A DNA stretch of 58,299 nucleotides from Bacteroidota bacterium (GCA_037134755.1 JBAXLO010000001.1:1-58299); one strand, 5' to 3'; positions 3,731 to 22,395 are shown, counted from the first letter of the stretch. Translations and numbers: made by a program. Notes: a model not told the origin generated them from the letters alone.

Positions 3731-5191
3731 ATGAAAACAAAGCCTATTACCTTTATAACTATTGTTTTGCTTAGCATGCTTATTAGTATTAATGCTGTCT
3801 CGCAAAAAGTAAATCCTCCTGCACCTTATGGCGCTCTCCCCAGCGAACGTCAGCTGGCATGGCACGAAATGGAGTTCTATGGTTTTATACATTATACCGT
3901 TAACGCTTTTACCGATAGAGAATGGGGCAATGGCGATGAAGACCCTTCTATATTTGCTCCAACACAGTTGGATGTAAACCAATGGGCGAAGACGGCAAAG
4001 GCAGCAGGCATGAAAGCTTTGATATTAACTGCCAAGCACCATGATGGATTTTGTTTGTGGCCAAGTAAATATACAGAACATTCAATAAAGAATAGTCCCG
4101 TAAAAGATCATAATATAGTTAAGGAACTGGCAGCAGCATGCAAAGCAAACGGTTTAAAGTTTGGTGTTTATCTTTCGCCATGGGACAGGAATAGTGCCAT
4201 GTATGCCGATACCGCTTATATTACTTATTATAGAAAACAGTTAACTGAATTGCTAACGGAAAATGGTGATATCTTCGAGGTTTGGTTTGATGGTGCCAAT
4301 GGTGGTGATGGTTATTATGGTGGAGCAAAAGAAAAGCGTACTATTGATAAGAAAACATATTATCAGTGGGATAAAACACGTGCATTGGTTCGCAAACTTC
4401 AACCTAATGCATGTATGTTTAGTGATGCCGGTCCTGATTGTCGTTGGTGTGGAAACGAAGATGGTATAGCTGGAGTTACTAATTGGAATACTATAAATAC
4501 AATTGGTTTATTTCCCGGTATAGCTAATCAGAACGAATTAAATTCAGGTGTTCGTAATGGTAGTGACTGGATTCCTGCCGAAACAGATGTATCTATTCGT
4601 CCGGGCTGGTTTTATCATGCAAGTCAGGACAGCAATGTAAAATCTCCAAAAAAACTTTTGGAAATATATTATAACTCTGTTGGAAGAGGTTCAAATCTTT
4701 TATTAAATTTGCCACCTGATAAAAGAGGTTTAATTCATGAAAATGATGTTAAATCTTTAAAAGAAATGCGAAAGATACTTGATGAAACATTTGCTAATAA
4801 TCTTGCTAAAGGTAAAAAAGTAACTGCTTCAAACTACAGAGGGAATGATAAACTTTATGCTCCTGCTAATACAATTGATAATAATAAAGATACTTACTGG
4901 GCAACCGATGATAAAATAAAAAGTCCAGAACTGATAGTTGATTTTGGTGATAAAGTAACTTTCAACAGGGTTAAAGTTAAAGAATATATTAAATTTGGAC
5001 AACGTATAGAAGGCTTTGCAATAGACTATTGGAACAACGGGAAATGGGAACTATTGGAAGAAGGCACAAGTATAGGTTATCAAAGAATACTTTGCACTAA
5101 GAATGTTACAACAACAAAGGTTAAATTAAGGATAACAAAGAGTCCTGTATGTGTTGCTATTTCTGAATTTGGAATATATTTACAAAAATAA
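3731..5191 (+). CDS. alpha-L-fucosidase (GH29) with C-terminal F5/8 type C (discoidin) domain
   Basis: Signal peptide plus GH29 hallmarks: FIHYTVNAFTDREWG, LTAKHHDGFCLWPS, SPWD, FEVWFDGANGG. The C-terminus is discoidin-like: NTIDNNKDTYWATDD...ISEFGIY. Confidence 0.9.
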   Translation: MKTKPITFITIVLLSMLISINAVSQKVNPPAPYGALPSERQLAWHEMEFYGFIHYTVNAFTDREWGNGDEDPSIFAPTQLDVNQWAKTAKAAGMKALILTAKHHDGFCLWPSKYTEHSIKNSPVKDHNIVKELAAACKANGLKFGVYLSPWDRNSAMYADTAYITYYRKQLTELLTENGDIFEVWFDGANGGDGYYGGAKEKRTIDKKTYYQWDKTRALVRKLQPNACMFSDAGPDCRWCGNEDGIAGVTNWNTINTIGLFPGIANQNELNSGVRNGSDWIPAETDVSIRPGWFYHASQDSNVKSPKKLLEIYYNSVGRGSNLLLNLPPDKRGLIHENDVKSLKEMRKILDETFANNLAKGKKVTASNYRGNDKLYAPANTIDNNKDTYWATDDKIKSPELIVDFGDKVTFNRVKVKEYIKFGQRIEGFAIDYWNNGKWELLEEGTSIGYQRILCTKNVTTTKVKLRITKSPVCVAISEFGIYLQK

Positions 5192-5194
5192 TTT

Positions 5195-6685
5195 ATGACA
5201 TTACTTGGTTACGATTTAGGAAGTTCTTCAGTAAAAGCCTCATTAATTGATGCCATTACCGGGAAATGTATTGCTAAGGCACAGTATCCGGATACTGAGA
5301 TGAAGATAAATGCACCGCAAGCAGGTTGGGCAGAACAAGACCCTGAAATATGGTGGGAATATATTGGCAAGGTTACTAAACTTATCCTTTCAAATCCCGG
5401 TGTTGATGCCAATGATATAAAAGCCATTGGTATTTCCTATCAGATGCATGGTTTGGTTTTGATTGATAAGGAAAAGAAAGTTCTTCGCCCTTCTATTATC
5501 TGGTGCGATAGCCGTGCAGTTCCTTATGGTGAAAAAGCTTTTAAAGAGATAGGTGAAGAGAAATGTTTGGAAGAATTATTAAATTCACCCGGCAACTTTA
5601 CTGCCTCAAAACTTAAATGGGTTAAGGAAAACGAGCCTGCTATATATAATAAGGTATATAAGATGTTGCTTCCCGGAGATTATATTGCGATGATGCTTAC
5701 TGGTGAATGCAAAACTACTACAATAGGTTTGTCGGAAGGTATTCTGTGGAACTTTAAGAAGGAAGATATTGCTGATATGCTTTTGGATTATTATGGTATT
5801 AATAAAGATTTAATTCCTGATAGAACTCCTATTATGGGCATTCAGGGGAAAGTAAATAAGATGGCTTCTGAATTGCTTGGCCTTCCTGAGGGGATTCCTG
5901 TTGCATATCGTGCCGGCGATCAACCTAATAATGCACTTTCGTTAAATGTTCTCAATCCCGGGGAGGTGGCTGCAACGGCAGGCACCTCAGGTGTAGTTTA
6001 TGGTGTTAATGATAAGATTCTATTTGACCCTGCTTCCAGAGTAAATACCTTTGTACATGTAAATCATACTAAAGATAAGCCTCGTTATGGGGTATTGCTT
6101 TGCATTAATGGCACAGGTATTTTGTATTCTTGGATGAAAAGAATGTTTGGAGGTAAATATTCTTATGATGAACTGAATCTTAAAGCTGAGAAGGCAAATA
6201 TTGGTTCGGATGGTTTGATATTTATCCCTTTCGGGAATGGCTCTGAAAGAATGCTTGGCAATAAGATTGTAAATGCCGGTATGATGAATCTTAATTTTAA
6301 TATTCATGGTGAAAATGAACTGATACGTTCTGCAATTGAGGGCATAGCTTTCTCTTTTGCTTATGGTATGAAAATCTTAAATAGCACAGGAGTTCAGACT
6401 AAGACTATCAAAGCAGGCAATGCTAATTTGTTTTTAAGTCCTGTGTTCAGGCAGACTTTAGCCAATGCCACAGGTTCTATTATTGAATTATATGATACCG
6501 ATGGAGCCACTGGAGCTGCAATTGGAGCAGGAATTGGTTCAGGTATTTATAAATCGGAAGAAGAAGCTTTCAAGAATTTAAATGTAATCGGCATTACCAA
6601 ACCTGATAGTAATGCTATTGAAATGACAACCACTGCTTGCGAAAAATGGATTCATACATTAGAAACGCAGTTAACAAATTTATAA
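5195..6685 (+). CDS. xylB: xylulokinase (FGGY carbohydrate kinase)
   Basis: FGGY N-terminus LGYDLGSSSVKA, plus GDQPNNALS and TSGVVYGV. It sits directly upstream of xylA, with a 3-nt gap to the preceding gene. Confidence 0.85.
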   Translation: MTLLGYDLGSSSVKASLIDAITGKCIAKAQYPDTEMKINAPQAGWAEQDPEIWWEYIGKVTKLILSNPGVDANDIKAIGISYQMHGLVLIDKEKKVLRPSIIWCDSRAVPYGEKAFKEIGEEKCLEELLNSPGNFTASKLKWVKENEPAIYNKVYKMLLPGDYIAMMLTGECKTTTIGLSEGILWNFKKEDIADMLLDYYGINKDLIPDRTPIMGIQGKVNKMASELLGLPEGIPVAYRAGDQPNNALSLNVLNPGEVAATAGTSGVVYGVNDKILFDPASRVNTFVHVNHTKDKPRYGVLLCINGTGILYSWMKRMFGGKYSYDELNLKAEKANIGSDGLIFIPFGNGSERMLGNKIVNAGMMNLNFNIHGENELIRSAIEGIAFSFAYGMKILNSTGVQTKTIKAGNANLFLSPVFRQTLANATGSIIELYDTDGATGAAIGAGIGSGIYKSEEEAFKNLNVIGITKPDSNAIEMTTTACEKWIHTLETQLTNL

Positions 6686-9700: not shown

Positions 9701-9741
9701 TTCTAAACTAAATACATTTTAAATATATCCTAAAAATGTTT

Positions 9742-9778
9742 AGACCTAATCCTATACAAACGGGGTTAGGTCTTTTTG
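9742..9778 (+). terminator. rho-independent terminator after xylE
   Basis: AGACCTAATCC ... GGGTTAGGTCT stem followed by TTTTT. Confidence 0.7.
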
Positions 9779-9786
9779 TCATTTAA

Positions 9787-10209
9787 TCATTTTAAAATAC
9801 TTCTTATATAATCCATAAATGGGAATAAAAGAAATGTTAGAATTATATAGCAAAAGAAGTAAAGATAGTGAATGTCCTTTGGCTTATTTTCTTCGAAATA
9901 ATCAATAATTTTTATATATTTACCTTTATAATATAATAGAAAATAATTTATCAAGCTAAATAATATTAAAGTTGGTAATAATCTATCAGGATATTTATCA
10001 TATATTAATGGGAAAAATGCTAAAAAGTTTGCACTTTGAAAAATTGCAAACAAAATTAAAGTTCCAAATGAACGATTTTCTTTTGTATGAGCAGGTAACC
10101 ATGAAAGTTTATTAAAAAAGTAAAAGGATATATAAAACAAAAGTTTATAAATAAAGAAAATTCTTTTTCCTAATTTCTTAAAGAAATCTATAATACTATT
10201 TGAAAACAT
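9787..10209 (-). CDS. hypothetical integral membrane protein
   Basis: 140-aa ORF with about four hydrophobic helices and no recognisable motif. Confidence 0.5.
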   Translation of the reverse strand: MFSNSIIDFFKKLGKRIFFIYKLLFYISFYFFNKLSWLPAHTKENRSFGTLILFAIFQSANFLAFFPLIYDKYPDRLLPTLILFSLINYFLLYYKGKYIKIIDYFEENKPKDIHYLYFFCYIILTFLLFPFMDYIRSILK

Positions 10210-10371
10210 ATATTAATTTTTATTTTTGATATTTATAATTCATTTGTATAAACATTCCATTTAGCATGTAAAAGTAGTAAAATAATTAACACGTGAAGTA
10301 AAAAAGAACAAAAAACATTTCTACTAAATTAAAATATGATTTTATTAATAATAATTCCGTACATTTGCATT

Positions 10372-10665
10372 ATGAATTTAGACAATAAATCAATAGAGAC
10401 AATAAAAGAATATTTTGAAACTCGTCCGGTTTTAAAAGCATACCTTTTTGGTTCGTACGTTCGTGACGAAGCGGATGATTCAAGTGATATTGATATTCTT
10501 GTTGATTTAGATTATTCTCAAAAGATTGGTTTGCAATTTATACAAATGAAATTAGATTTAGAGAAACTATTATGTAAAGAAGTTGACTTGGTTTCTTCAA
10601 ATGGGATATCTAAATATATTAAACCTATTGTTGATAATGAAAAACAACTGATATATGCGAAGTAA
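10372..10665 (+). CDS. MNT-type nucleotidyltransferase (antitoxin of an MNT/HepT pair)
   Basis: GSYVRDEADDSSDIDILVD is the minimal nucleotidyltransferase GS...DxD motif. The track ORF starts at 10336. The ATG at 10372 (MNLDNKSIETIKEYF...) fits family N-termini better. Confidence 0.8.
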   Translation: MNLDNKSIETIKEYFETRPVLKAYLFGSYVRDEADDSSDIDILVDLDYSQKIGLQFIQMKLDLEKLLCKEVDLVSSNGISKYIKPIVDNEKQLIYAK

Positions 10666-11002
10666 TCTAGGTGATAAAGTTAGATTGCAGCATATTTTGG
10701 ATGCTATTACTGAGATAGAATCGTATCTTATCAATACTGAGTTTTCTGATTTTATGGATAATTCAATGATGAGGTTTGCTTGTATCAAACAAATGGAGAT
10801 TATTGGAGAAGCAAGTAATCATATCTCTGATGATATTAAATCAAGATTTTCGCAGATAGAATGGGCGCAGATTAATGGTATGAGAAATGTTTTTGTACAT
10901 GAATACTTTGGTATTGATGCTAATTTAGTTTGGGAAATTATTAAAAATGATATCCCAGCATTAAAAGAAAAAATAATTGATGTTTTAGAGTCTTTTGAAT
11001 AA
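10655..11002 (+). CDS. HepT-type HEPN toxin (DUF86)
   Basis: 115 aa and overlaps the MNT gene by 11 nt. RNVFVHEY is the Rx4-6H HEPN motif. Confidence 0.8.
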   Translation: MRSNLGDKVRLQHILDAITEIESYLINTEFSDFMDNSMMRFACIKQMEIIGEASNHISDDIKSRFSQIEWAQINGMRNVFVHEYFGIDANLVWEIIKNDIPALKEKIIDVLESFE

Positions 11003-11038
11003 TAATAAAGATATCAAAATAGAAAATAAATAACTTTT

Positions 11039-11824: not shown

Positions 11825-12457
11825 TTATAACTTGTGTAATAGTTCTTTTGTGTTTTTAACAAATAAATCCCATTTATGGTAAAAATGACTGCTCATAATA
11901 GGTATCATTGTTCGGTTGAGGTAGTTTTCTGAAGGTTTAATAAACTTCCCTTCCTGATAATATTCTAACATATTCCTTTTGTTAATTTTGTGTGGGGATA
12001 ATGCTTGCAGGACTTTTAAATTTGTAAAAAACACAGGTATTCTTAACGAAAATAATGTATCTATCTCCTGTTTTAAAGTTGGTTTCCAGATTTCTGCAAA
12101 CTCATACCAATTGGGGTTTTTATCTACATGTCTATTACAATAATTTTGAACCAAATTTTGCACATATATAGTATCAAGACCTAAACCAACCATTCGCAAG
12201 TTAAATTCATGAGTTTTAAAATATTTTGACCCCGGATCTTCTAAACCAAAAACATATTTATAGTTTAATTTAATATCCAAACTAGGGTCAGGGCCTATAA
12301 CAATGGCTTTTACATTAGCTATATTTCCATAAAAAGGTTTTGGCAGATGTTTAGTGTCTACATAATACCTCATTAATTCCTCGTTTTTTATAATAATATC
12401 AATAGCGTTATCATTACTTACATCAAACAAACTTAAGGTTTTATCTACTTGTTTCAT
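11825..12457 (-). CDS. hypothetical protein, possibly uracil-DNA-glycosylase-superfamily fold
   Basis: 210-aa ORF. VIGPDPS, YVQNLVQNY and MSSHFYH are spaced like UDG motifs A, the mid motif and B, but the resemblance is weak. Confidence 0.5.
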   Translation of the reverse strand: MKQVDKTLSLFDVSNDNAIDIIIKNEELMRYYVDTKHLPKPFYGNIANVKAIVIGPDPSLDIKLNYKYVFGLEDPGSKYFKTHEFNLRMVGLGLDTIYVQNLVQNYCNRHVDKNPNWYEFAEIWKPTLKQEIDTLFSLRIPVFFTNLKVLQALSPHKINKRNMLEYYQEGKFIKPSENYLNRTMIPIMSSHFYHKWDLFVKNTKELLHKL

Positions 12458-12634
12458 TTTTTTATTAATTTCTATACAAAAGTACTATTCTTTAGTTATA
12501 AAAGGGTTCTTTTTGTAATATAATATTAAAAAAAATAAAATTAGTCATTAGTTTTAGATAAAAATCCAGACATATTAAGTTAAAGCATATATTATCAATA
12601 ATAAAGTACTTTAAGTAAGGCTGAAAACCTTGTA

Positions 12635-12844
12635 TAATGCAAATGTAAAGTAGGAGGTTTTGCTCAAATGTTGGTGTAATACAAATGTAAAGTAGGAGGT
12701 TTTGAGCCGAAACTGGTGTAATGCAAATGTAAATTTTGAGTGCAAAGGTAAAAGCTGGCTTAATACAAATGTAAAATTTAGGTGCAGATGTAAAAGTTGA
12801 TATAATGCAAATGTAAAATAAGAGTTTTTGAATCCGAGGAAAGC
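12635..12844. repeat. tandem array, 5 x 42 bp (TAATRCAAATGTAAA...)
   Basis: Unit starts at 12635, 12677, 12719, 12761 and 12803 are spaced exactly 42 bp apart. Each unit contains an internal half-repeat (TGCAAATGTAAA / TGCAAAGGTAAA). Confidence 0.9.
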
Positions 12845-13103
12845 TATTTTTTATAAAATAAATTCTAGATGCTTAAACAAGCTATATTTTTAAGTGCTTT
12901 TTACATATATTTTTAAATATAATGGTTAGTTTAGATAAAAAGAATCAATTTGTGTTAAAATAAGTGTATCATAATAGTACAAAATATATCTATTTTAGAA
13001 GTATTTTTAATTTTTATTCAACTATAATAGGTATTAGATGAGATGGTAGTATAATATTTTTAATTTTTATTTATTATTTTGTAATACAGAGCATTTTATT
13101 TTG

Positions 13104-13111
13104 TACATTTG
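13104..13111 (+). promoter_or_regulatory. putative -7 box (TACATTTG) for the 13257-21466 operon
   Basis: A TAnnTTTG match lies about 145 nt upstream of the ATG at 13257, which implies a long leader. Confidence 0.35.
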
Positions 13112-13256
13112 TCAACGAAAACACGAATATCTGACTAATCATTGGGACAAGGTATTGTTTATGGTGTAATGATATGATTTTTATCTATCTCTACCAAAAA
13201 AAAGCCGCCTGTTCGCCTTTTCTTAACAATAGTATTAATAAATTAATAATGTTCAT

Positions 13257-14222
13257 ATGAGCAGCAAACATTCGTTTTACATTACAAATTACTTTCTGAA
13301 TTATACCGTTAATTCCAGAAAAAAGATGGTGGACATAGTGGCATACTTTATGTCGGTAGTTAATCAAGGCATGCCAGATGTTGACCTACAAATAATCTTA
13401 GATAGGACTGATCCTCAGTTTACACTCTACAAGGCTAAATTTAAGACATGGAAACTCGCAAAAGAAACATATCAGAATGCAACTACGCTGATTGAGCAGT
13501 CATTCGGTCATTTACATTTAGATTTAGAAGCTGTTCATGGATTAGTTATAGCAGTTTATCCATCAAACTCTAACGAATATCAGTCTATATTTCGCGATGG
13601 ATTAGATATCTATCATACAGATTCTTATTATCAACGAATTCAACAATTAGGATATTTAAGCGACCGCTTAGGATTATACCTGCCTATGGCAACAGAAAAA
13701 ACTACGATTGCAGGCTTGTGTACTAGTATCTCAGCTCTTAGAGATAAACAACAACAGAAAGCAAAATCTTTAGTTGAAGCTTCTGATGATCTCGAATTGT
13801 GTAGAGTAGATATTGCTGATATGATGTATGGTAACGTTGGTTTATTAATGAATAAATTTCGTAAAACAAGAGATAAAATTCTTAGCTTCTTTAATTTGGA
13901 TTTATTATATGGAAGAGGACAAAAAGAAGTTGCTACAAAGACTTATGGTTTAAATGTTCCTGTTAATTCTTATGGAAAAACAGCAATACAGATAACTTCA
14001 AAAACTACTTTTGGATTTAATAACACAGGCAATGTAATGATGCAAGTTTATACAGCTTCTACACCAGATGCACCAGTACCTACAAATGCGTTAACTATTG
14101 ATGCAGATGTAGAAGTAAATGCAAAAGCTGATACATTAGGAGCAGTAACCAATACCTGGCTTATCGTTTATAATGCTGATGTTAATTTTTCAGGTTCAAT
14201 AGATATTACTGAAACCAACTAA
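13257..14222 (+). CDS. hypothetical protein, orphan helical-N / beta-rich-C family; first gene of the MELLYID/NYN operon
   Basis: 321-aa ORF with no signal peptide. The N-terminal two-thirds are predicted helical and the C-terminal ~100 aa are beta-rich (TYGLNVPVNSYGKTAIQITSKTTFGFNN...). Its layout resembles 25395..26309 and 27158..28090. An alternative start is M24, at 13326. Confidence 0.65.
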   Translation: MSSKHSFYITNYFLNYTVNSRKKMVDIVAYFMSVVNQGMPDVDLQIILDRTDPQFTLYKAKFKTWKLAKETYQNATTLIEQSFGHLHLDLEAVHGLVIAVYPSNSNEYQSIFRDGLDIYHTDSYYQRIQQLGYLSDRLGLYLPMATEKTTIAGLCTSISALRDKQQQKAKSLVEASDDLELCRVDIADMMYGNVGLLMNKFRKTRDKILSFFNLDLLYGRGQKEVATKTYGLNVPVNSYGKTAIQITSKTTFGFNNTGNVMMQVYTASTPDAPVPTNALTIDADVEVNAKADTLGAVTNTWLIVYNADVNFSGSIDITETN

Positions 14223-14245
14223 TACCTTTACTTAAGAATCCGGTT

Positions 14246-14280
14246 ATGTATATATTAGCCTCAAAAGCTAATATGTACAT
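14246..14280 (+). terminator. intra-operon hairpin (possible partial terminator or attenuator)
   Basis: ATGTATATATTAGC-CTCAAAA-GCTAATATGTACAT is a 14-bp stem with one mismatch. A TTTTT run follows 8 nt later. Confidence 0.45.
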
Positions 14281-14307
14281 TGCTGCATTTTTCAAATTCT
14301 TATCGTT

Positions 14308-15399
14308 ATGGAATTACTATATATTGATTTAATAACAAAAAATATTCAATGTGAATCTGAATATTATTATTTCATTGTAAACTATATAATAGGCAAAAAA
14401 ATTTCCTTACATTCAAATATAGGATTTTATAATTTCATTAATAAAAATAAAAAAAGAATTAGTTTATCTGATTTCATTAAATATTATGAAAGTTATTGTA
14501 TTTATTTTCATAAAGATAATAAAGAAGAACTTGATGTTGTCTTTAGCTATTGTGATGATTTTAAAATTTTTAATAAAGATTACAAAGCCTATTCAAAGAA
14601 GAAGAATTTAACAAAAGAACAATTAGTATTTATGAATTGCCATAATACTAACTACAATATGATAAAAGAAAAATTAATTGATATTTGCAAAAATAATATG
14701 ACATCATTAAATCTAATGGCCTATTCTGATTTAATAAATGATGATATAATTGAAACAAGTTTTTCATTATTCAAAAGAAATGGAAAAATTGATGATATTG
14801 AATTGAGTGAAATTATTTTTAATAATTTTTTATCAAAAGAAAAATTAGTTATAGCAGGAAGTTTCTATGAAAAAGTTATTGATTCTATGAATAAATATAA
14901 AGAAGAAAATGAGATAGAAGGAGAAAAATCTAATAAAATATTTTTGCCAGATTTACCATTATTGAAATTCCCTATATCAAGTGAAATATCAAAAGAGCAT
15001 TTGCAATTAATTAGATTACAATTTAATTCACAGATTACCATTTTGTTTGATAAAATACAAAACTATAGAATTAATGAATTGCAACATGAAATTAATGAAA
15101 CACTTGCAGAAAAATTATCTGTGTTTTACAAAACATTACATGAGGATATAGAAATTATTCAAAATAAAATAGATGAAAATATATTTTTTCAAAAAATAAT
15201 AAACTCAGATTCTATATATAAAACAGTAATAGTAAATTTGGGTATAGTTCCTTATTTTACTCTGGTATGTTTGTATTTTTCTCTAAAAGCAATTACTATA
15301 GAAAAATTTTTAGAATTAAGAAATAGATGTAATTACGAACTCGGAACTTTTACAGGTGATTTTTTTCTTTATTATGAAATAGAACCTAAAATAAATTAA
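14308..15399 (+). CDS. MELLYID-family paralogue 1 (hypothetical, no recognisable domain)
   Basis: 363 aa. Starts MELLYIDLITK..SEYYYFIVNYIIGKK and ends FFLYYEIEPKIN. Clear paralogy to the next four ORFs. Confidence 0.75.
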   Translation: MELLYIDLITKNIQCESEYYYFIVNYIIGKKISLHSNIGFYNFINKNKKRISLSDFIKYYESYCIYFHKDNKEELDVVFSYCDDFKIFNKDYKAYSKKKNLTKEQLVFMNCHNTNYNMIKEKLIDICKNNMTSLNLMAYSDLINDDIIETSFSLFKRNGKIDDIELSEIIFNNFLSKEKLVIAGSFYEKVIDSMNKYKEENEIEGEKSNKIFLPDLPLLKFPISSEISKEHLQLIRLQFNSQITILFDKIQNYRINELQHEINETLAEKLSVFYKTLHEDIEIIQNKIDENIFFQKIINSDSIYKTVIVNLGIVPYFTLVCLYFSLKAITIEKFLELRNRCNYELGTFTGDFFLYYEIEPKIN

Positions 15400-15483
15400 G
15401 AAGAAAATGAAATTGAATAAAGTTAGAAATATGAATGGATTTATTAAAAATACATTAATAATTAAAAACTAATTATTACAATT

Positions 15484-16593
15484 ATGGAATTGCTATATAT
15501 AGATTATATGAAAACGCAAAATCAATTTGATTCTGAATATTATTATTTTATTATAAATTATTTAATTGGTGAAAAGATTCAAATGCATTCTAACTTTGGA
15601 TTTTATATGCATGTTGTTAAAAATATTAATAAGTTAAGCAAATATGAACTTGTAGATTATCTTGAAAATTATATGATTCAAAGCACTTTACATACTCCTT
15701 GCGATTTAAAAGATTTTTTTGCTACAAAAGATATGTATAGTAGAACTAATAAGCTAGTTACAAAAATTTTAAAGCACGGTAAAATGCCAAAGATAGACTT
15801 TGAAATAGTGAAATCCTTTAACGATTTAATAGCAACAAATAAATCTGAATTACTAAGAATATGTAATGAATTATTAGAAAAGCAACATTTATTGCCTTAT
15901 GTTGATTTACTTGATAATGATATTTTAAAGACTTCTTTTTCTTTATATAATCGTGATGTAACTATAAAAGAAAAGGAAATTGGGGAAATTATATATAATA
16001 ACTTTAAAAGAAAAGATAGGCTTTTAGTTTTGGGAAGCATGATTGGTATGCAAATGGACTTGTTTTTAGTTGAAGATGGAATTGGGACCTCAAAAAATGA
16101 AGAAGACTTAGTAACTGTTGGATCTTCATGTTTATTAACAATTCCATGCTCAAAAAAATTAACAAAGGATAATCTTATTTTTATTAGAAAGCAATTCCAT
16201 GCAAAATTTGATTCTTTATTTGCCAAAATATATGATTTCCGATCAAAATTTCTTAAAAAAGAGTTAGATGATGACCTAATGATAGAATTTAATAATTTTA
16301 CTTCAGAAATAGAAAATGAATTGGAAATATTACAACTTGAAATAGACAACCATATCTATTTTCAGAAAATTAAAAATTCAGATCCTGATTATGTAAATAT
16401 AAGTATCAATTTGGGAGTTCTACCAATTGATTTAATTTTTATGGTTTATGTTACGTCAAATGTAATTTCATTTGATAAATACTTAGAATTAAGTATTAGA
16501 GAATATAATGAAATAGGTAAAGGTATGGGAGATATTTATCTTTATTATGAAATTGAACCAAAAATAAACGAAGAAGAAAATACAGAAGAATAA
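15484..16593 (+). CDS. MELLYID-family paralogue 2
   Basis: 369 aa. Contains MELLYIDYMK..SEYYYFIINYLIGEK, IPCS, QKIKNSDPDYVNISINLGVL and IYLYYEIEPKIN. Confidence 0.75.
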   Translation: MELLYIDYMKTQNQFDSEYYYFIINYLIGEKIQMHSNFGFYMHVVKNINKLSKYELVDYLENYMIQSTLHTPCDLKDFFATKDMYSRTNKLVTKILKHGKMPKIDFEIVKSFNDLIATNKSELLRICNELLEKQHLLPYVDLLDNDILKTSFSLYNRDVTIKEKEIGEIIYNNFKRKDRLLVLGSMIGMQMDLFLVEDGIGTSKNEEDLVTVGSSCLLTIPCSKKLTKDNLIFIRKQFHAKFDSLFAKIYDFRSKFLKKELDDDLMIEFNNFTSEIENELEILQLEIDNHIYFQKIKNSDPDYVNISINLGVLPIDLIFMVYVTSNVISFDKYLELSIREYNEIGKGMGDIYLYYEIEPKINEEENTEE

Positions 16594-16693
16594 AATTTTT
16601 AATTGCTTTTTAAATACACACATAAATTGTGTAAATACTTATTTATAAATTTTATTAGTTCAGATATTCATTAAAATAATTAATATTTAAGTT

Positions 16694-17800
16694 ATGGAAT
16701 TATTGTATATAAACGATGTTAAAGATGATAAACAACTTGATGAAGAGGTTTTTTACTTTATTGTTAATTACATTATAAGTGAAAATGTAACGATACATTC
16801 AAATGTTGGGTTTGGCTTAGAAATGTTTAAAAAGATTGATTGTTTTTCTGATGATGAAGTAATGAAGTATTTAGAAAGTTATTTTTTTATAATACAGCCC
16901 CAAATTACATCACGTTTATCTGAAGAACTTAAAAAAATTGATGGATTGAAGGAGTGTATGAAAACCTACAAACAATTAAAACATCGGAATCAATTACCTC
17001 CAGGACATTTCAAATATCTTCAGACATTAAAAACAAGGTATTTAGATTATCGGAAAACCTTCAAGGGGTTTTTGAATGATTATGTACGATTTTTGGGAAT
17101 ATATAAATATGTAGATTTATATGACGAAGTTATAATAAAAGCAAGCTATACCGACATTAATAGAGATTGGGAATTAATCGACCAGGAGCTTGGGGAAATA
17201 TTATATAACAATATTTCAAACCGAAAAAATCTAATATTACTTCATGATCTATCAAATTTAGAGGAATTTGACGCAAATAAAGAAGTTGATGAAGAACAAA
17301 AAGCCTTGCTTATCGAATTGTTTACATTGCATAAAATTCTATTAGTAACTATTCCATGTTCCGTTAATTTACAATTAAACGAACTAGTAGTTTTGAGACA
17401 AAGGTTTTTAAACAATTTTACTGAATTATTCTCAAGAATACAATTTTTTAGAAAAGATATTAATAAAATTGACACAGTTGAAACGTTAACAGAAAAATTA
17501 AATGAATTTAAATCTGAAATTAAAGATGATTTACAAAAAATACAAAACGAAATAAATACAAATCTATACTTCCTGAAAATTAAAAATTCAGATTCAGATT
17601 ACACAAATGTTACTATTAATCTTGGTATATTATTTAATGTAACTATATTTAATTATTTCTCTGTGAGAAATTTGATATCGCCTGATAAATATTCAGAATT
17701 AGAATATAGGTTAAATAATAAATTAAATGAAAAGTATTATGATTTATTTATATACTATAAAATTGACTTAGATATAAATAAATATAAAATTAGCGAATAA
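16694..17800 (+). CDS. MELLYID-family paralogue 3
   Basis: 368 aa. Contains MELLYINDVK, IPCS, LKIKNSDSDYTNVTINLGIL and LFIYYKIDLDIN. Confidence 0.75.
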   Translation: MELLYINDVKDDKQLDEEVFYFIVNYIISENVTIHSNVGFGLEMFKKIDCFSDDEVMKYLESYFFIIQPQITSRLSEELKKIDGLKECMKTYKQLKHRNQLPPGHFKYLQTLKTRYLDYRKTFKGFLNDYVRFLGIYKYVDLYDEVIIKASYTDINRDWELIDQELGEILYNNISNRKNLILLHDLSNLEEFDANKEVDEEQKALLIELFTLHKILLVTIPCSVNLQLNELVVLRQRFLNNFTELFSRIQFFRKDINKIDTVETLTEKLNEFKSEIKDDLQKIQNEINTNLYFLKIKNSDSDYTNVTINLGILFNVTIFNYFSVRNLISPDKYSELEYRLNNKLNEKYYDLFIYYKIDLDINKYKISE

Positions 17801-17822
17801 TAATTAAAAAACACATATAATT

Positions 17823-18908
17823 ATGGAATTGCTATATGTAGATAATATTACTAAAGAGTTTCAATATGAGAACGAATACTATTATTTTGTATTTAATTAT
17901 ATAATTGGAAAAAGAGTTCATTTGCATTCTAATGTGAGTTTTTGCTTTCATGTTATTAAAAATATAAGTAAATTTAAAGAGAATGAGATTCTGGATTTAT
18001 ATGAGATTAACAGCTTCCACAAAAATGTTGAAGAAGGTAGAGATTTGGAGGAGGTAACAAAAGGATATGAGCTTATTAAAAAACAATCTCCATTTGTAAA
18101 ACAACTAAAGAAACAAAAAAGATTAAATAAAGAAAGATTTGGCTTAGTACAAACATTTAATCAAGTTTTAACTTCAAGTAGAGATATTTTAAGAGAGTCA
18201 TGTAAAGATGACTTAGAAGCTATGGATTTATTGCCTTATATTGATTTAATTGATGAAGGTGTTATTATAACAAGTTATTCAACCTATAATAAAGTAGGAA
18301 AGATTGATGATTGTGAAATTGGAGAGAAATTGTTACAAACATATATTAATAGAGATAAAATATTAGTTTTAGGTAGTATATTGCCTATTTTGGCTAAACC
18401 AATATTACCAGAAGATATAAAAAGAATTCCTCCTTTGTTTTCAAGGAAAGTTTGTTTAGTAGGTATTCCACTTGTTTATATTCCTTGTTCAATAGGTTTT
18501 AAAAAAGACTCTCTTGTTTTATTACGTAAACAATTTATGAGTAAGTTTGATAAATTATTGGAGAAAATTCAATCTTTTAGGATTGAAATAAATACGTTGA
18601 CATTTAACAAAGAGATTAAAAATAAGATACTAGCATTTCAGGAATTATTAAATCAGGATTTAACGATGCTTCAAGATGAAATTAATACTAATATTTATTT
18701 CCAAAATGTAATTAATTGTGGAAAAGAGTATAATAATGTGTTTTTAATACTAGGCATACTTCAAAATGAATATATAGGTTTGTTTCATATAAGTAATTAC
18801 GCATTAAGTAAAGAAAAACATTTGGAATCAAATGAAGTAATAAAAAATAAAATTGGGAAAAACAAAAGTGAAGTCTTTCTCTATTATAATATAGAACAGA
18901 ATAGATAG
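17823..18908 (+). CDS. MELLYID-family paralogue 4
   Basis: 361 aa. Contains MELLYVDNITK..NEYYYFVFNYIIGKR, IPCS and VFLYYNIEQNR. Confidence 0.75.
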   Translation: MELLYVDNITKEFQYENEYYYFVFNYIIGKRVHLHSNVSFCFHVIKNISKFKENEILDLYEINSFHKNVEEGRDLEEVTKGYELIKKQSPFVKQLKKQKRLNKERFGLVQTFNQVLTSSRDILRESCKDDLEAMDLLPYIDLIDEGVIITSYSTYNKVGKIDDCEIGEKLLQTYINRDKILVLGSILPILAKPILPEDIKRIPPLFSRKVCLVGIPLVYIPCSIGFKKDSLVLLRKQFMSKFDKLLEKIQSFRIEINTLTFNKEIKNKILAFQELLNQDLTMLQDEINTNIYFQNVINCGKEYNNVFLILGILQNEYIGLFHISNYALSKEKHLESNEVIKNKIGKNKSEVFLYYNIEQNR

Positions 18909-18926
18909 ATTAATAATCTTAATAAT

Positions 18927-20042
18927 ATGAATTTAACTTTTATAAATAGAACAACTTCCAAAATATTACCAATGTCTGAGAACATTTATTTTTATTGTTC
19001 TTATATTATTGCTGATACGTCTTCTTATCATGCAGTGTTTTCGATGATGGAAGATTTTAGTGACTTGAAAATAGAAAGTAATAATGAAGAGTTTATTTTG
19101 GAGCTTTATCTTTTATTTAATAAAGATAATATTAATTGCGATGTGCTTAGGAGTGAAGCTAATATTTTGTTTTCTTGGTGTCAGAAACATAAGAGTGTAA
19201 ATCATAAGACAAAAGAGATGATTATTAATTATCAAAGAAAAAATCTTTTACTTAGAAAGATGTTGAATTTTATAGTAGATTTCTATCAAAACATGACAAG
19301 TAGTTTTGGGTTTGCAAAAGATCAATTAGGATTAATAGATGGGAAGATTGCTTCTTGTATTAGAAATATTTATGAAAGTGAAGATTATTTAGATGAACAT
19401 ACAGAAGATTCTTTAATAACATTGATTCCAGAATACTTATTTAGAAAAGAGAACTATTTTGTAATAGAAACTCTTATAGAGGATATTCTTAAGCCTTTTT
19501 ATATAAAAGATCCTGACCATTCAATTAATATTATGAATGAAAATGAATTTGTATGTATGCCATTATTTAAGATACCTTATTTTAGATTCTTTAACTCGAA
19601 TAGTTTGGTGTCGATAAGGAATACTTTAAAATCGAGTATGGGTGTTCTTTCAGATATTATTAATGATTTCCAAGATAATCTTAAAGAATTTGATTTTGAT
19701 AATAATGCAATAGATGTTATAAATAGTTATGTGCCGAAAGTACAATTAATATCTACTAATATACAGGAGCAAATAGACACTCAAGTTTATATTAAGAAAG
19801 AAATGAATTCAGGTTCAATGTTTCTTAATATGCAAATATATCTTGGTATATGTAAAATCAAATCAATACCTGAGTATTTTAGTGAAGCCGAAATAATAAA
19901 GCCTTTTATAATTGATTCAATTAATAAAAATATAGAAATAAAAGGTAATTTAAATAAAAGTCAGGTGTTCATTTATATGAAACCTGAGGAACAATCAATA
20001 CATGAATTCTTAGTATCTTATAAAAATAATTTAACATGTTAA
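18927..20042 (+). CDS. MELLYID-family paralogue 5, divergent member
   Basis: 371 aa. The N-terminus has diverged (MNLTFINRTTSK..ENIYFYCSYIIAD), but the family blocks are retained: LFKIPYF, LVSIRNTL, QVYIKKEMNSGSMFLNMQIYLGI, VFIYMKPEE. Confidence 0.7.
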   Translation: MNLTFINRTTSKILPMSENIYFYCSYIIADTSSYHAVFSMMEDFSDLKIESNNEEFILELYLLFNKDNINCDVLRSEANILFSWCQKHKSVNHKTKEMIINYQRKNLLLRKMLNFIVDFYQNMTSSFGFAKDQLGLIDGKIASCIRNIYESEDYLDEHTEDSLITLIPEYLFRKENYFVIETLIEDILKPFYIKDPDHSINIMNENEFVCMPLFKIPYFRFFNSNSLVSIRNTLKSSMGVLSDIINDFQDNLKEFDFDNNAIDVINSYVPKVQLISTNIQEQIDTQVYIKKEMNSGSMFLNMQIYLGICKIKSIPEYFSEAEIIKPFIIDSINKNIEIKGNLNKSQVFIYMKPEEQSIHEFLVSYKNNLTC

Positions 20043-21466
20043 AACAAAAAATCGAACATTTTGAGGTGTCCGGCTTATCCGGATTTAAGTCTGTGGAATT
20101 AATAAAGATTAAAGACTTTGTTAAGATCTCCGACATATTAAAGGTGTATCATGTCTTCATAACTGAAAATAAAGTTGATGAAGAAATTAACAGAGCCTTC
20201 AATATTTTAAACAATGATATTATTTATAATATCAATTCAAATGGATTTATTTCTGTTGATGATTTTGATGATGCAGATGATAAAGGCTTTGAGAACGCTG
20301 AGGATTATGCTGAAGCAAAAAAAGGAGGCTACCATAACTATAAAGAGTTTGTGGAATTCCGTCAGTCGGGGGTGATTGATAGAAATGTGTATAAAAAAGC
20401 ACAGAAGTTAGGTTTCGTTGATAACTTTGATGACTTTAAAAAGAAATTAGAGCTAAATAAGAAGACGATACCCGAAGATTTTGATCTTAGTGAATATGAT
20501 AATTCATTAAAGTTGTTTCAATTTGCAAACGATCGTGGGTTTAAAGATTATGGTGATTTTGCTAAAGGCTTCTTTCTAGGCTTTACAGAGAAAATTATGA
20601 TGGATGAAGCAAAAGACAAAGGCTTTACTTATGCTAAAGATTATATTGGAGCCGTTTCTATGGGTTTTGATAATATTAGAGAGTTTCAGGAAGCAACTCA
20701 TCTTAATATTAAGAATAAGATTGAATTTAAAATGTTTGATAAGTTGAGGAGGATCTCTAAAAACATCCATGGTTTTGATGGAGCTCAGCTTATTGAAGCT
20801 CTTAAGATATATGAGAATGGCAAGCGTTTATCTATAAAGAAAATTTCGGAACTTATTGAACTGGAAAAAGAAAAGTGTAAACAATGCACTAGTGATAAAG
20901 GTATCAAAGAGCTACCTGAATGGTACGATCTTAAATTAAATACTAATGCTGATATCGAACAATTCTTGAAAACATGCACTGAGCTTAAAGATTATGGCTT
21001 TTATGATGCAGATGGTGAGTTTTTTGAAGTCTCTCGTCTTTCAGATACAACTATTTATATTGATGGTAGTAATGTTGCTTATGCTGATAATGGAAATAAA
21101 AAAGAAAACAAACCACAATATCTTAATATTATAACTTTAGCTCAACATTTAAAAGAACTTCGCTACAAAGATATCATTGTTATAGTAGATGCTAGTCTTA
21201 ATCATACAGTTACTGACCCTTTGTATTTAAGTACATTAAAGCAGAGTGCTCAATATCTGGAAGCTCCGGGTAATACTTCAGCTGATGAGTTCCTAATAGA
21301 AAACGCTAAGAAAAATAAATGTTACATAGTTACTAATGATACCTTCAGAGATTGGAAAGCTAAAGATAGCTGGATCTTTGAAAACATCGATCGTATCAGA
21401 GTTCCTTTCCTTAGAAACAGTAACGGTACGTTTAGTACTCCTTCGCTTGACTTAATAAAGGATTAG
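20036..21466 (+). CDS. Zc3h12a-like NYN-domain ribonuclease with N-terminal GF-repeat region
   Basis: The C-terminal ~130 aa read IYIDGSNVAY...IIVIVDASL...SADEFLIENAKKNKCYIVTNDTFRDW. This matches the MCPIP1/Zc3h12a NYN pattern (DGSNVA ... DD/DE ... SND...RD). The start overlaps the stop of the preceding gene (ATGTTAA). Confidence 0.8.
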   Translation: MLKQKIEHFEVSGLSGFKSVELIKIKDFVKISDILKVYHVFITENKVDEEINRAFNILNNDIIYNINSNGFISVDDFDDADDKGFENAEDYAEAKKGGYHNYKEFVEFRQSGVIDRNVYKKAQKLGFVDNFDDFKKKLELNKKTIPEDFDLSEYDNSLKLFQFANDRGFKDYGDFAKGFFLGFTEKIMMDEAKDKGFTYAKDYIGAVSMGFDNIREFQEATHLNIKNKIEFKMFDKLRRISKNIHGFDGAQLIEALKIYENGKRLSIKKISELIELEKEKCKQCTSDKGIKELPEWYDLKLNTNADIEQFLKTCTELKDYGFYDADGEFFEVSRLSDTTIYIDGSNVAYADNGNKKENKPQYLNIITLAQHLKELRYKDIIVIVDASLNHTVTDPLYLSTLKQSAQYLEAPGNTSADEFLIENAKKNKCYIVTNDTFRDWKAKDSWIFENIDRIRVPFLRNSNGTFSTPSLDLIKD

Positions 21467-21493
21467 TATTAAATGCTCTTCTATACGCAAGGT

Positions 21494-21540
21494 CACAATA
21501 ATGGGATTATGAATATTGTATTTGTAATCCTTTTATTGTG
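21494..21540 (+). terminator. imperfect hairpin after the NYN gene (operon terminator candidate)
   Basis: CACAATAATGGGATTA ... TAATCCTTTTATTGTG, followed by a T-rich tract. Confidence 0.4.
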
Positions 21541-21599
21541 TCTTTATTTAAAGTCGAATAACTTTTGTGAAAATGCACTTTAATTTGGTACTTATTTTG

Positions 21600-21607
21600 T
21601 AAATTTG
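21600..21607 (+). promoter_or_regulatory. putative -7 box (TAAATTTG) for the HAD gene
   Basis: A TAnnTTTG match lies 34 nt upstream of the ATG at 21641. Confidence 0.4.
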
Positions 21608-21640
21608 CAGCCTATTAAAACAATTATTTAAATACATCTT

Positions 21641-22324
21641 ATGTTTTCAGATATAGATAACAATCAATTCAATATTAATAAATCTAAGTATTCTCATTTT
21701 ATTTTTGACTGGAATGGTACCTTAATGGATGACCTTTGGCTTGCCGTTGATGTTATTGATAAGATGCTTGTTAAAAGAGGACTTTCCGGTATGACAATAG
21801 AACACTACAGCGAAGTGTTTGATTTTCCTGTTAAAGATTATTACGAGAAGATAGGTTTTGATTTTCAAAAAGAGAGTTTCGAACTTATAGGTACTGAGTT
21901 TATTGACGGATATAATGAGCGTCAATACGAATGCAAACTTCAGGTAGGAGCAAACGAGCTATTAAGAAATCTGAGCAGGCTACCAATTCAGTTAAGTGTG
22001 CTTTCGGCTCGCATTCAACATACTTTAGAAGAAAATCTGGATCATTATGGTATCTATAATCACTTTATGCATGTTGCCGGGTTAGATGACCATTATGCCA
22101 ATGGTAAACTGGGTGCGGGTATTGAGTTGCTTAATAAGACATCAATCCCAAAAGGGGACACTCTTATGATAGGCGATACTTTGCACGATGCTGAAGTAGC
22201 TAAAGAATTAGGTATTGATTGTGTTTTGGTAGTCTCAGGACATCAATCCGAAAAACGATTATTGTCAGCTAATGTGCCTGTATTTGATACTTTAGTTGAA
22301 TTAAATAAAGTCCTTTTGGCATAA
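21641..22324 (+). CDS. HAD-superfamily hydrolase (phosphoglycolate-phosphatase-like)
   Basis: Motif I-like FIFDWNGTLMDD and motif IV IGDTLHDAEVA. The length and layout are typical of HAD subfamily IA. Confidence 0.8.
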   Translation: MFSDIDNNQFNINKSKYSHFIFDWNGTLMDDLWLAVDVIDKMLVKRGLSGMTIEHYSEVFDFPVKDYYEKIGFDFQKESFELIGTEFIDGYNERQYECKLQVGANELLRNLSRLPIQLSVLSARIQHTLEENLDHYGIYNHFMHVAGLDDHYANGKLGAGIELLNKTSIPKGDTLMIGDTLHDAEVAKELGIDCVLVVSGHQSEKRLLSANVPVFDTLVELNKVLLA

Positions 22325-22395
22325 AGTTTGTTTTATTAACATCGTTTAGTTGAAAAAGAACTGAAATAGGTTGTTTTGCATCTGTATTTGTGTAC

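Follow-up and report, generated by a model that had tools for sequence, protein, structure and literature searches.

A chromosome segment of a Bacteroidota bacterium (GCA_037134755.1, JBAXLO010000001.1:1-58299), 58,299 nucleotides (nt) long and called the window below, carries sugar-utilisation genes and, at positions 14308-20042 of its + strand, five head-to-tail paralogous genes followed directly by a gene for an NYN endoribonuclease. The analysis leads to the view that this is a strain-variable array, coupled to the NYN gene and acting as a sensor/effector module, to which we give, as a whole, a probability of about 0.4. The descriptive and evolutionary part of this statement is very probably right: the arrays of close relatives differ by the presence or absence of anciently diverged types, and the family, judged from gene order, is coupled genetically to the NYN gene across deep divergence. 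The sensor-effector mechanism is possible, if on the doubtful side.

A strain-variable array under relaxed purifying selection

The five open reading frames (ORFs) encode proteins of 361-371 amino acids (aa; 363, 369, 368, 361 and 371 in order) that are co-linear in a full-length alignment. Identity to copy 1 is 36, 30, 32 and 19% for copies 2 to 5, and a single family hidden Markov model (HMM) matches all five, with E-values of about 1e-74 to 1e-86. A tandem paralogue array had been claimed in an earlier note on this DNA, and the array is real; the observation as a whole is partly confirmed. The six copies reported there (four paralogues, a fifth at 16694 and a sixth at 18927) were a miscount: the family HMM and the ORF map give five, and a scan of the window with the HMM detects no extra copy or fragment beyond these. 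The terminal motifs, tested in the strict forms MELLY[IV]D...EYYYF..NY[IL]IG.K....HSN and [FY]LYY.IE[PQ][KN], fit copies 1, 2 and 4; copy 3 (at 16694) comes close to them, and copy 5 (at 18927) is far more divergent. Two internal islands ascribed to copies 1-4 are less general, LLPY[VI]DL[LI]D occurring in copies 2 and 4 only and IPCS in copies 2-4. The overall pattern is as described, with conserved ends and islands separated by variable segments. In a conservation profile of 36 paralogues from five related arrays, residues 1-40, 135-180, 215-255, 280-310 and the C-terminus are conserved, and residues ~60-130 and 185-215 are variable.

Family members are nearly always found in same-strand arrays of 1-11 copies. 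Contig L046, from the same Trout Bog Lake hypolimnion population as the window (99.8% identical), has the same 5 copies. A related strain represented by L001 and L051, whose flank is 89% identical in nt and whose NYN protein is 97% identical in aa, has 11, with the same layout in two samples. There are 10 copies in a more distant relative (L006, 70-74% nt), at least 6 in L008 (right flank 86% nt) and at least 6 in L003 (right flank 84% nt), where an 86-aa remnant of the terminal copy is also present. Thus the flanks of related contigs are 70-89% identical in nt, the arrays are different, and copy number is not fixed across strains. The remnant in L003 (7324-7584) matches the family HMM with an E-value of 6e-13 and lies in the terminal, NYN-proximal position, the NYN gene downstream being intact; it is a pseudogene remnant at the type E position.

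The order of types is A-B-C-D-E in the window and A-F-G-H-I-J-C-K-L-D-E in the 11-copy array. Orthologous types are 60-94% identical across strains, and paralogues within a genome 15-47%, most of them 20-40%. No copies above 70% aa identity occur in any array; the strains are therefore set apart by ancient types that are present in one and absent from another, rather than by new duplications. The birth-and-death evolution proposed earlier is supported in so far as genes have been gained and lost at the syntenic locus (5, 11, 10 and at least 6 copies); recent births, which would leave copies above the 70% level, are not seen.

Individual positions illustrate this. Copy 1 (type A, 363 aa, 14308-15399, +; family HMM E 8e-74) has orthologues in L001 (L001_1, 91%) and L006 (L006_1, 68%), each time at the first position of the array. 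Type C, which is copy 3 (368 aa, 16694-17800, +; E 1e-81), is found in all four related arrays (L003_5, 88%; L001_7, 68%; L008_3, 65%; L006_5, 63%), and copy 4 (type D, 361 aa, 17823-18908, +; E 8e-86) has its orthologues in L008 (L008_5, 90%) and L051 (tenth copy, 91%). Copy 5 (type E, 371 aa, 18927-20042, +) is NYN-proximal and the most divergent; its orthologues L008_6 (92%), L051_11 (72%) and L006_10 (52%) all lie immediately 5' of the NYN gene. Copy 2 (type B, 369 aa, 15484-16593, +; E 3e-85) has no orthologue above 50% identity in public data, its nearest relatives being type G copies at 46-47%. In a library clustered at 50% identity it is represented by itself (P0006, 361 aa), with a start at the internal Met9; the ATG at 15484 is favoured over Met9 (region 15484-15510) because the MELLYID N-terminus is common to other copies. 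The N-terminal pattern of type E, M..xFINR...E..YFY, is that of a wider, distant branch of the family. By this sequence comparison, copies 1-4 constitute a lineage-specific subfamily, and the N-terminus of copy 5 resembles the wider family.

Conserved gene ends might serve as recombination substrates, variable cores being shuffled between copies by cassette exchange or gene conversion, as the earlier note suggested. Indeed, the 5' end is the most conserved part in protein and DNA (a maximum of 77-87% nt identity when different types are compared in windows of 90 nt), and between-strain BLAST alignments run ~180 nt into non-orthologous genes. However, synonymous divergence between paralogues (pS) is saturated throughout, with values of 0.59 and 0.63 at the ends and of 0.58-0.66 in the core. 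Copies 1, 3, 4 and 5 each follow one orthologue collinearly over their whole length, no mosaics being found, and no pair within an array exceeds 70% identity. The apparent breakpoints were dismissed, since N-terminal conservation alone accounts for them: BLAST extends its alignments through the conserved 5' part of the coding sequence. The saturated ends and collinear orthologues together indicate that the ends are kept by protein-level selection and not by exchange of cassettes. At the available resolution, these alignments largely refute cassette exchange, which we consider highly improbable.

Selection was gauged from omega, computed by the Nei-Gojobori method and, for the array copies, on ten orthologue pairs. 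Values are 0.18-0.33 for array copies versus 0.03-0.15 for the neighbours, including 0.08 for gene 1 (the first gene of the block, see below), 0.03-0.04 for the NYN gene and 0.10-0.12 for a HAD gene. Along the copies, the two variable segments have values of 0.31 and 0.44, and the islands of 0.12-0.25; purifying selection is thus not uniform along the length, the variable segments evolving faster. Diversifying pressure on discrete regions, which had been claimed, is not shown by values of 0.18-0.33 per gene and of at most 0.44 in the variable segments.

One genome pair makes the contrast visible: the NYN proteins are 97% identical, copies D 91% and copies E 72%, and the replacements in copy E are concentrated in codons 61-215. 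Codon positions were counted by hand on a gap-free DNA alignment of window copy 5 with its L051 counterpart. Divergence at first and second positions is 0.07 in codons 1-60, 0.24 in codons 61-215 and 0.09 in codons 216-371, the corresponding third-position values being 0.32, 0.42 and 0.21. Replacements in the core therefore accumulate about three times faster and never exceed silent sites. The copies are under purifying but relaxed selection, and change is fastest in what the structural model shows as a long helical hairpin (residues ~63-133) and a disordered loop (~183-214).

The NYN partner and the paralogue family

Clustering of the array neighbours yields a single recurrent partner, a protein of ~480 aa encoded immediately 3' of the array on the same strand, which is a homologue of the NYN protein. 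In the window this gene (20036-21466, +) encodes a 476-aa endoribonuclease of the Regnase/ZC3H12A type. In all, 42 homologues were found, all of about 456-488 aa. The family lies directly upstream in 13 of the 14 sequence-verified NYN loci (the window, L003, L006, L008, L051, L011, L013, L016, L017, L018, L021, L041 and L042). A search from the NYN side confirmed its position immediately 5' in L041 and L042, and made it probable in a third locus from gene sizes only. The NYN proteins remain 41-54% identical across genomes whose array proteins share only about 20%. In the window the stop of copy 5 overlaps the NYN start by 7 nt, and the same overlap is present in L006, L008 and L051. NYN-proximal copies tend toward being mutual best matches across genomes, though not cleanly.

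Residues 338-449 of the NYN protein match PF11977 (RNase_Zc3h12a) with 52.1 bits against a cut-off of 23. An AlphaFold model (predicted local distance difference test, pLDDT, 88) comprises an N-terminal beta domain, ~12 short helices and, after a small linker, the NYN domain at the C-terminus (residues 339-476). With this domain, Foldseek retrieves ZC3H12B/C, Regnase-1/MCPIP1 and KHNYN at E-values of 3e-6 to 2e-4 and template-modelling (TM) scores of 0.60-0.71. D343, N346, D385, D417, E418 and D435 are invariant among the 42 homologues and D439 is at least 90% conserved (invariant in a 7-sequence alignment); D343, D417/E418, D435 and D439 are spaced like the MCPIP1 site D141, D225, D226, D244 and D248 (PMC5499597). 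From sequence and model, the effector is apparently active. Bacterial members of the Zc3h12a-type NYN family are listed as being of 'unknown function' (PMC5499597). The part of the gene that precedes the nuclease (20036-21040, residues 1-335) is conserved as strongly as the nuclease domain itself. It consists of a small beta domain and ~12 short helices formed from GF..D(Y/F)..A repeats, and has no match in Pfam or the PDB.

The 7-nt overlap raises the question of a toxin-antitoxin-like (TA) arrangement, in which the NYN RNase would be the toxin, the upstream paralogues its inhibitors, and additional copies spare or anti-addiction ones. An upstream partner that overlaps a PIN-like nuclease gene is what VapBC-type operons display, the terminal copy evolves fastest, and a bona fide MNT/HepT pair is encoded nearby. 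However, the partners are ~360 aa long, number 2-11 and have no DNA-binding domain (no helix-turn-helix, ribbon-helix-helix or AbrB match), and the nuclease, with 476 aa, several domains and an omega of 0.03, is not a small mobile toxin. Apart from the overlap, nothing of the VapBC pattern, with a small DNA-binding antitoxin and a small single-domain toxin, was found here. Plasmid records, phage records and viral contigs contain no relative of either the family or the NYN protein. The L003 locus, with its proximal copy reduced to 86 aa beside an intact NYN gene, speaks against a cognate antitoxin that is essential, unless another copy takes over its role. A TA function is thus very unlikely.

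As for the paralogues themselves, Pfam, NCBIfam, PADLOC and PHROGs return only sub-threshold noise for the five copies; a weak resemblance of copy 3 to Csx20 (E 0.003-0.007) was the only hit in PADLOC-DB 2.0, and nothing was significant. Pfam matches none of 66 diverse family members, and the family profile finds only coiled-coil noise among PDB sequences. An AlphaFold2 model of copy 2 (pLDDT 82.8, predicted TM score 0.82) has an alpha/beta core with seven strands. Its long helical hairpin (helices 72-97 and 103-133) coincides with the first variable segment and a low-confidence loop (196-211) with the second. Searched against the PDB and BFVD with Foldseek, this model has no relative; the best E-value is 0.3, and no TM score exceeds 0.16. 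The idea that the family is a degenerate PIN/NYN domain was ruled out, since hhalign against the NYN protein gives a probability of 0.3%. Inspection by eye shows neither a signal peptide nor a membrane segment. Across the wide family, near-invariance is limited to three residues, which in copy 2 are E18, P221 and N298, and no enzymatic fold or catalytic motif emerges from the model, Foldseek, Pfam or the conservation pattern.

An exhaustive HMMER search among 1.84 billion representative proteins recovered 222 at E <= 0.001, nearly all of them full-length (about 345-380 aa). They come from metagenomes or Bacteroidota metagenome-assembled genomes (MAGs) only, and 'hypothetical protein' is the sole name at the source. 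A scan of GTDB identified 31 loci in 10 MAGs, labelled Bacteroidales, Bacteroidota or Marinifilum or binned from stratified lakes, with array sizes from one copy to six or more; the same scan with an alignment of the close family gave no match. No publication describing the family or its pairing with NYN was found. On these profile searches, the paralogues represent an undescribed family of ~360-aa, cytoplasmic alpha/beta proteins that is limited to a few uncultured Bacteroidota lineages.

Gene 1 (321 aa, 13257-14222, +) precedes the array. Its conservation at this place is restricted to the clade of the window, with 95% aa identity in L001 and 66% in L006; the L042 array is preceded by a distant homologue, alignable across 159 aa at 26% identity (E 2e-7). 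It is unrelated to the paralogue family and has no match in Pfam, PADLOC, NCBIfam, PHROG or the PDB. Because it is absent from distant NYN-linked arrays, it is not a universal component. The spacers between the five copies measure 84, 100, 22 and 18 nt, and no terminator-like site occurs on the + strand within the block. Since the spacers are that short and no such site intervenes, it is plausible from the layout that gene 1, the five paralogues and the NYN gene form one operon-like transcription unit. Rfam gives no match across 12000-22000. A sigma-70 promoter scan produced fewer matches than expected from shuffled sequence, Bacteroidota promoters being different from that consensus. G+C content is lower in the array than anywhere else in the window (22-25% versus 30-37% in the flanks).

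The 800-bp non-coding stretch 5' of gene 1 contains, at 12635-12817 (+), five copies of TAATRCAAATGTAAA spaced exactly 42 nt apart, with R alternating between G and A (5 matches versus 0.18 expected). L001 has three copies of it at the syntenic place and L006 none. The repeats may form an array akin to operators or iterons. At 13104 there is one -7 motif of the Bacteroidota type (TAnnTTTG).

Genomic context and candidate functions

Most arrays stand among ordinary metabolic genes. In the window, no recombinase or integrase is found in the flanks near the array. Downstream, between 22376 and 42010, there are at least seven genes with a Por_Secre_tail domain, the sorting domain of the type IX secretion system (T9SS), at 22376, 29179, 30724, 32137, 34561 (-), 37898 (-) and 40421 (-). 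Several of them also carry PKD or InlB B-repeat domains, and together they make a dense secreted/surface cluster 3' of the array. Por_Secre_tail genes adjoin arrays at 7 loci; as partner candidates they were set aside as background, since genes for T9SS cargo are so common, the window alone having seven.

Known defence or TA genes occur within 10 kb of several loci: MNT/HepT in the window, SIR2-HerA in L042, a Type IIG restriction-modification system in L016 and a split HEC-01A in L041. In the window, the MNT (10336-10665) and HepT (10655-11002) genes are a bona fide TA pair near the array. Together with a 140-aa ORF they occupy ~1300 nt (9714-11013), against ~800 nt (4429-5228) in L049, a contig of the same population that is 99.2% identical on the array-side flank and 95% on the far side. 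At 3 kb from the array, the population varies at this second spot as well. In L042 (1821-5182; also in L043, GCA_023251515.1), complete SIR2 and HerA genes and a 520-aa gene stand between the gene 1 homologue and an array of two copies plus NYN, and this interval thus behaves as an insertion hotspot for defence genes. In L041 (17310-18354, -), 6 kb 3' of a two-copy array with NYN and beside a DUF559 endonuclease-like gene, a HEC-01A-type ATPase is divided into ORFs of 128 and 227 aa, which makes it probably a pseudogene.

The array looks like a conflict or defence module that has not yet been described, because relatives carry 10 or 11 copies. An immunity or sensor family, as first suggested, is plausible, and that interpretation as a whole is partly supported. 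In the mechanism proposed here, the paralogues would be alternative specificity subunits, sensors or adaptors, for a shared RNase. Their conserved N- and C-terminal core would dock to the NYN protein or regulate it, and recognition of different ligands, most likely those of phages or other mobile elements, would fall to the variable hairpin and loop. The NYN RNase would be the common effector, so that many variable sensors would act through one conserved effector. It may even be that novel-fold sensors, in this expandable array and in orphan arrays elsewhere in the genome, each recognise a different invader molecule by hairpin and loop and then switch on one NYN RNase, as a split sensor-effector immune system of Bacteroidota not known before; this extended form is doubtful.

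A different conflict role must be weighed at this point. The paralogues might form a homogeneous polyimmunity locus and neutralise the interbacterial toxins of competitors, the NYN gene being only a conserved neighbour. Such loci, known from Bacteroidetes, are uninterrupted, with same-strand genes, short spacers, and a number and type of genes that vary between close relatives (PMC3482391). The same layout, without interruption by a toxin gene, recurs in about 40 arrays, and the syntenic locus varies in this way (5, 11, 10 and at least 6 copies); the relaxed omega and the variable segments would also fit. However, a polymorphic toxin gene adjoins none of the about 40 arrays examined, and no cognate toxin neighbour was seen at any locus. 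The only neighbour with RHS repeats, in L018, was considered as a toxin and rejected; it is a small secreted protein with a signal peptide, whose YD repeats run up to the C-terminus and leave no toxin tip. None of the 66 family members matches an Imm or SUKH family of Pfam. Homogeneous polyimmunity loci are usually one per genome and often stand beside a recombinase (Zhang, de Souza, Anantharaman, Iyer & Aravind 2012, PMC3482391), whereas many loci per genome are common here, one MAG having at least nine array contigs, and no recombinase is nearby. The deeply conserved adjacency to NYN, with its overlap, is also left unexplained. We therefore find this role distinctly unlikely.

Several observations weigh against the sensor/effector module. 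The link between paralogues and NYN is a matter of gene order. Of the 31 GTDB loci, 25 have an array but no NYN gene beside it, and the family is missing from one verified NYN locus, L044. In one MAG, 9 contigs together carry at least 20 full-length copies; for sensors of a single effector, such figures are unusual. No region has an omega above 1, and no PADLOC model is matched by gene 1, the paralogues or the NYN protein. The proximity of defence genes, as a raw observation at several loci, is only suggestive. Finally, the NYN protein, being single-copy, multi-domain and with an omega of 0.03, would also fit a housekeeping RNA-processing enzyme.

The last point leads to a reading free of conflict, in which the paralogues are cofactors that direct NYN to different cellular RNAs, or act independently of it, and differences in copy number are due to drift or niche adaptation. 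Partner proteins are known to guide protein-only RNase P (PRORP) to RNAs. A single-copy NYN protein of about 456-488 aa in all 42 homologues, with an omega of 0.03-0.04, is what this reading would predict, and its layout, a helical-repeat region followed by the NYN domain, recalls PRORP. The resemblance is confined to the nuclease domain in Foldseek (E about 2e-3); on the NYN protein, the PRORP profile PF16953 reaches 19.9 bits, short of its cut-off of 39.1, and there is no pentatricopeptide repeat match. The paralogues are all ancient and under net purifying selection, and the metabolic surroundings of most arrays would suit such a role. It is at odds with a very narrow and patchy distribution, with the low G+C of the array relative to its flanks, and with an omega 2-10 times that of the neighbours. 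It also sits badly with a twofold gap in copy number, differing types and a pseudogenised terminal copy where the NYN proteins are 97% identical. Such a role is unlikely, although some room for physiological RNA processing is left by the large number of arrays that lack NYN and by how strongly NYN is conserved.

The sensor/effector module, if real, would matter in more than one respect. It would add a new defence architecture, with an evolutionary link to the antiviral Regnase/KHNYN RNases of eukaryotes, and would give a bacterial role to an RNase family that eukaryotes turn on viral RNA. Current defence catalogues were built mostly from cultured Proteobacteria and Firmicutes. A family without a detectable relative, with at least 20 copies in some genomes and twofold variation between near-identical lineages, has the signature of a missed conflict system. 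Should the sensor-effector idea be wrong, the locus would still be a clean natural example of presence/absence evolution among ancient paralogue types. In either case, one clade of bacterial Zc3h12a-type NYN RNases gains a conserved genetic partner and a testable hypothesis.

Comparison with known systems

Homogeneous polyimmunity loci share with the array the tandem, same-strand arrangement of distant paralogues, the short spacers, the variability between strains and the occurrence in Bacteroidetes. The array differs from them in its larger proteins (~360 aa), its many loci, the lack of a toxin and of any likeness to Imm or SUKH proteins, and in the conserved, overlapping NYN RNase gene downstream. 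VapBC-type operons resemble the block in that an upstream gene overlaps one for a nuclease of the PIN superfamily. In contrast, the partner is here large, multi-copy and devoid of a DNA-binding domain, and the nuclease is large, highly conserved and not found on mobile elements.

The NYN protein resembles Regnase-1/ZC3H12A, ZC3H12B/C and KHNYN in sequence (52 bits), in structure (TM 0.60-0.71) and in its acidic residues. Unlike these, it is bacterial and carries no CCCH zinc finger or KH domain, having instead an N-terminal beta domain and helices with the GF..D(Y/F) motif. Plant sensor/helper networks of nucleotide-binding leucine-rich repeat (NLR) proteins combine many variable sensors with one conserved effector. 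The paralogues have no homology to NLR or STAND proteins, and ligand sensing is proposed by analogy only. The likeness is one of logic: clustered, expanded paralogues that are polymorphic for presence and absence stand beside a slowly evolving single partner. If the split sensor-effector system proved true, the array and its NYN RNase would be a bacterial counterpart of such many-sensors/one-helper immune networks.

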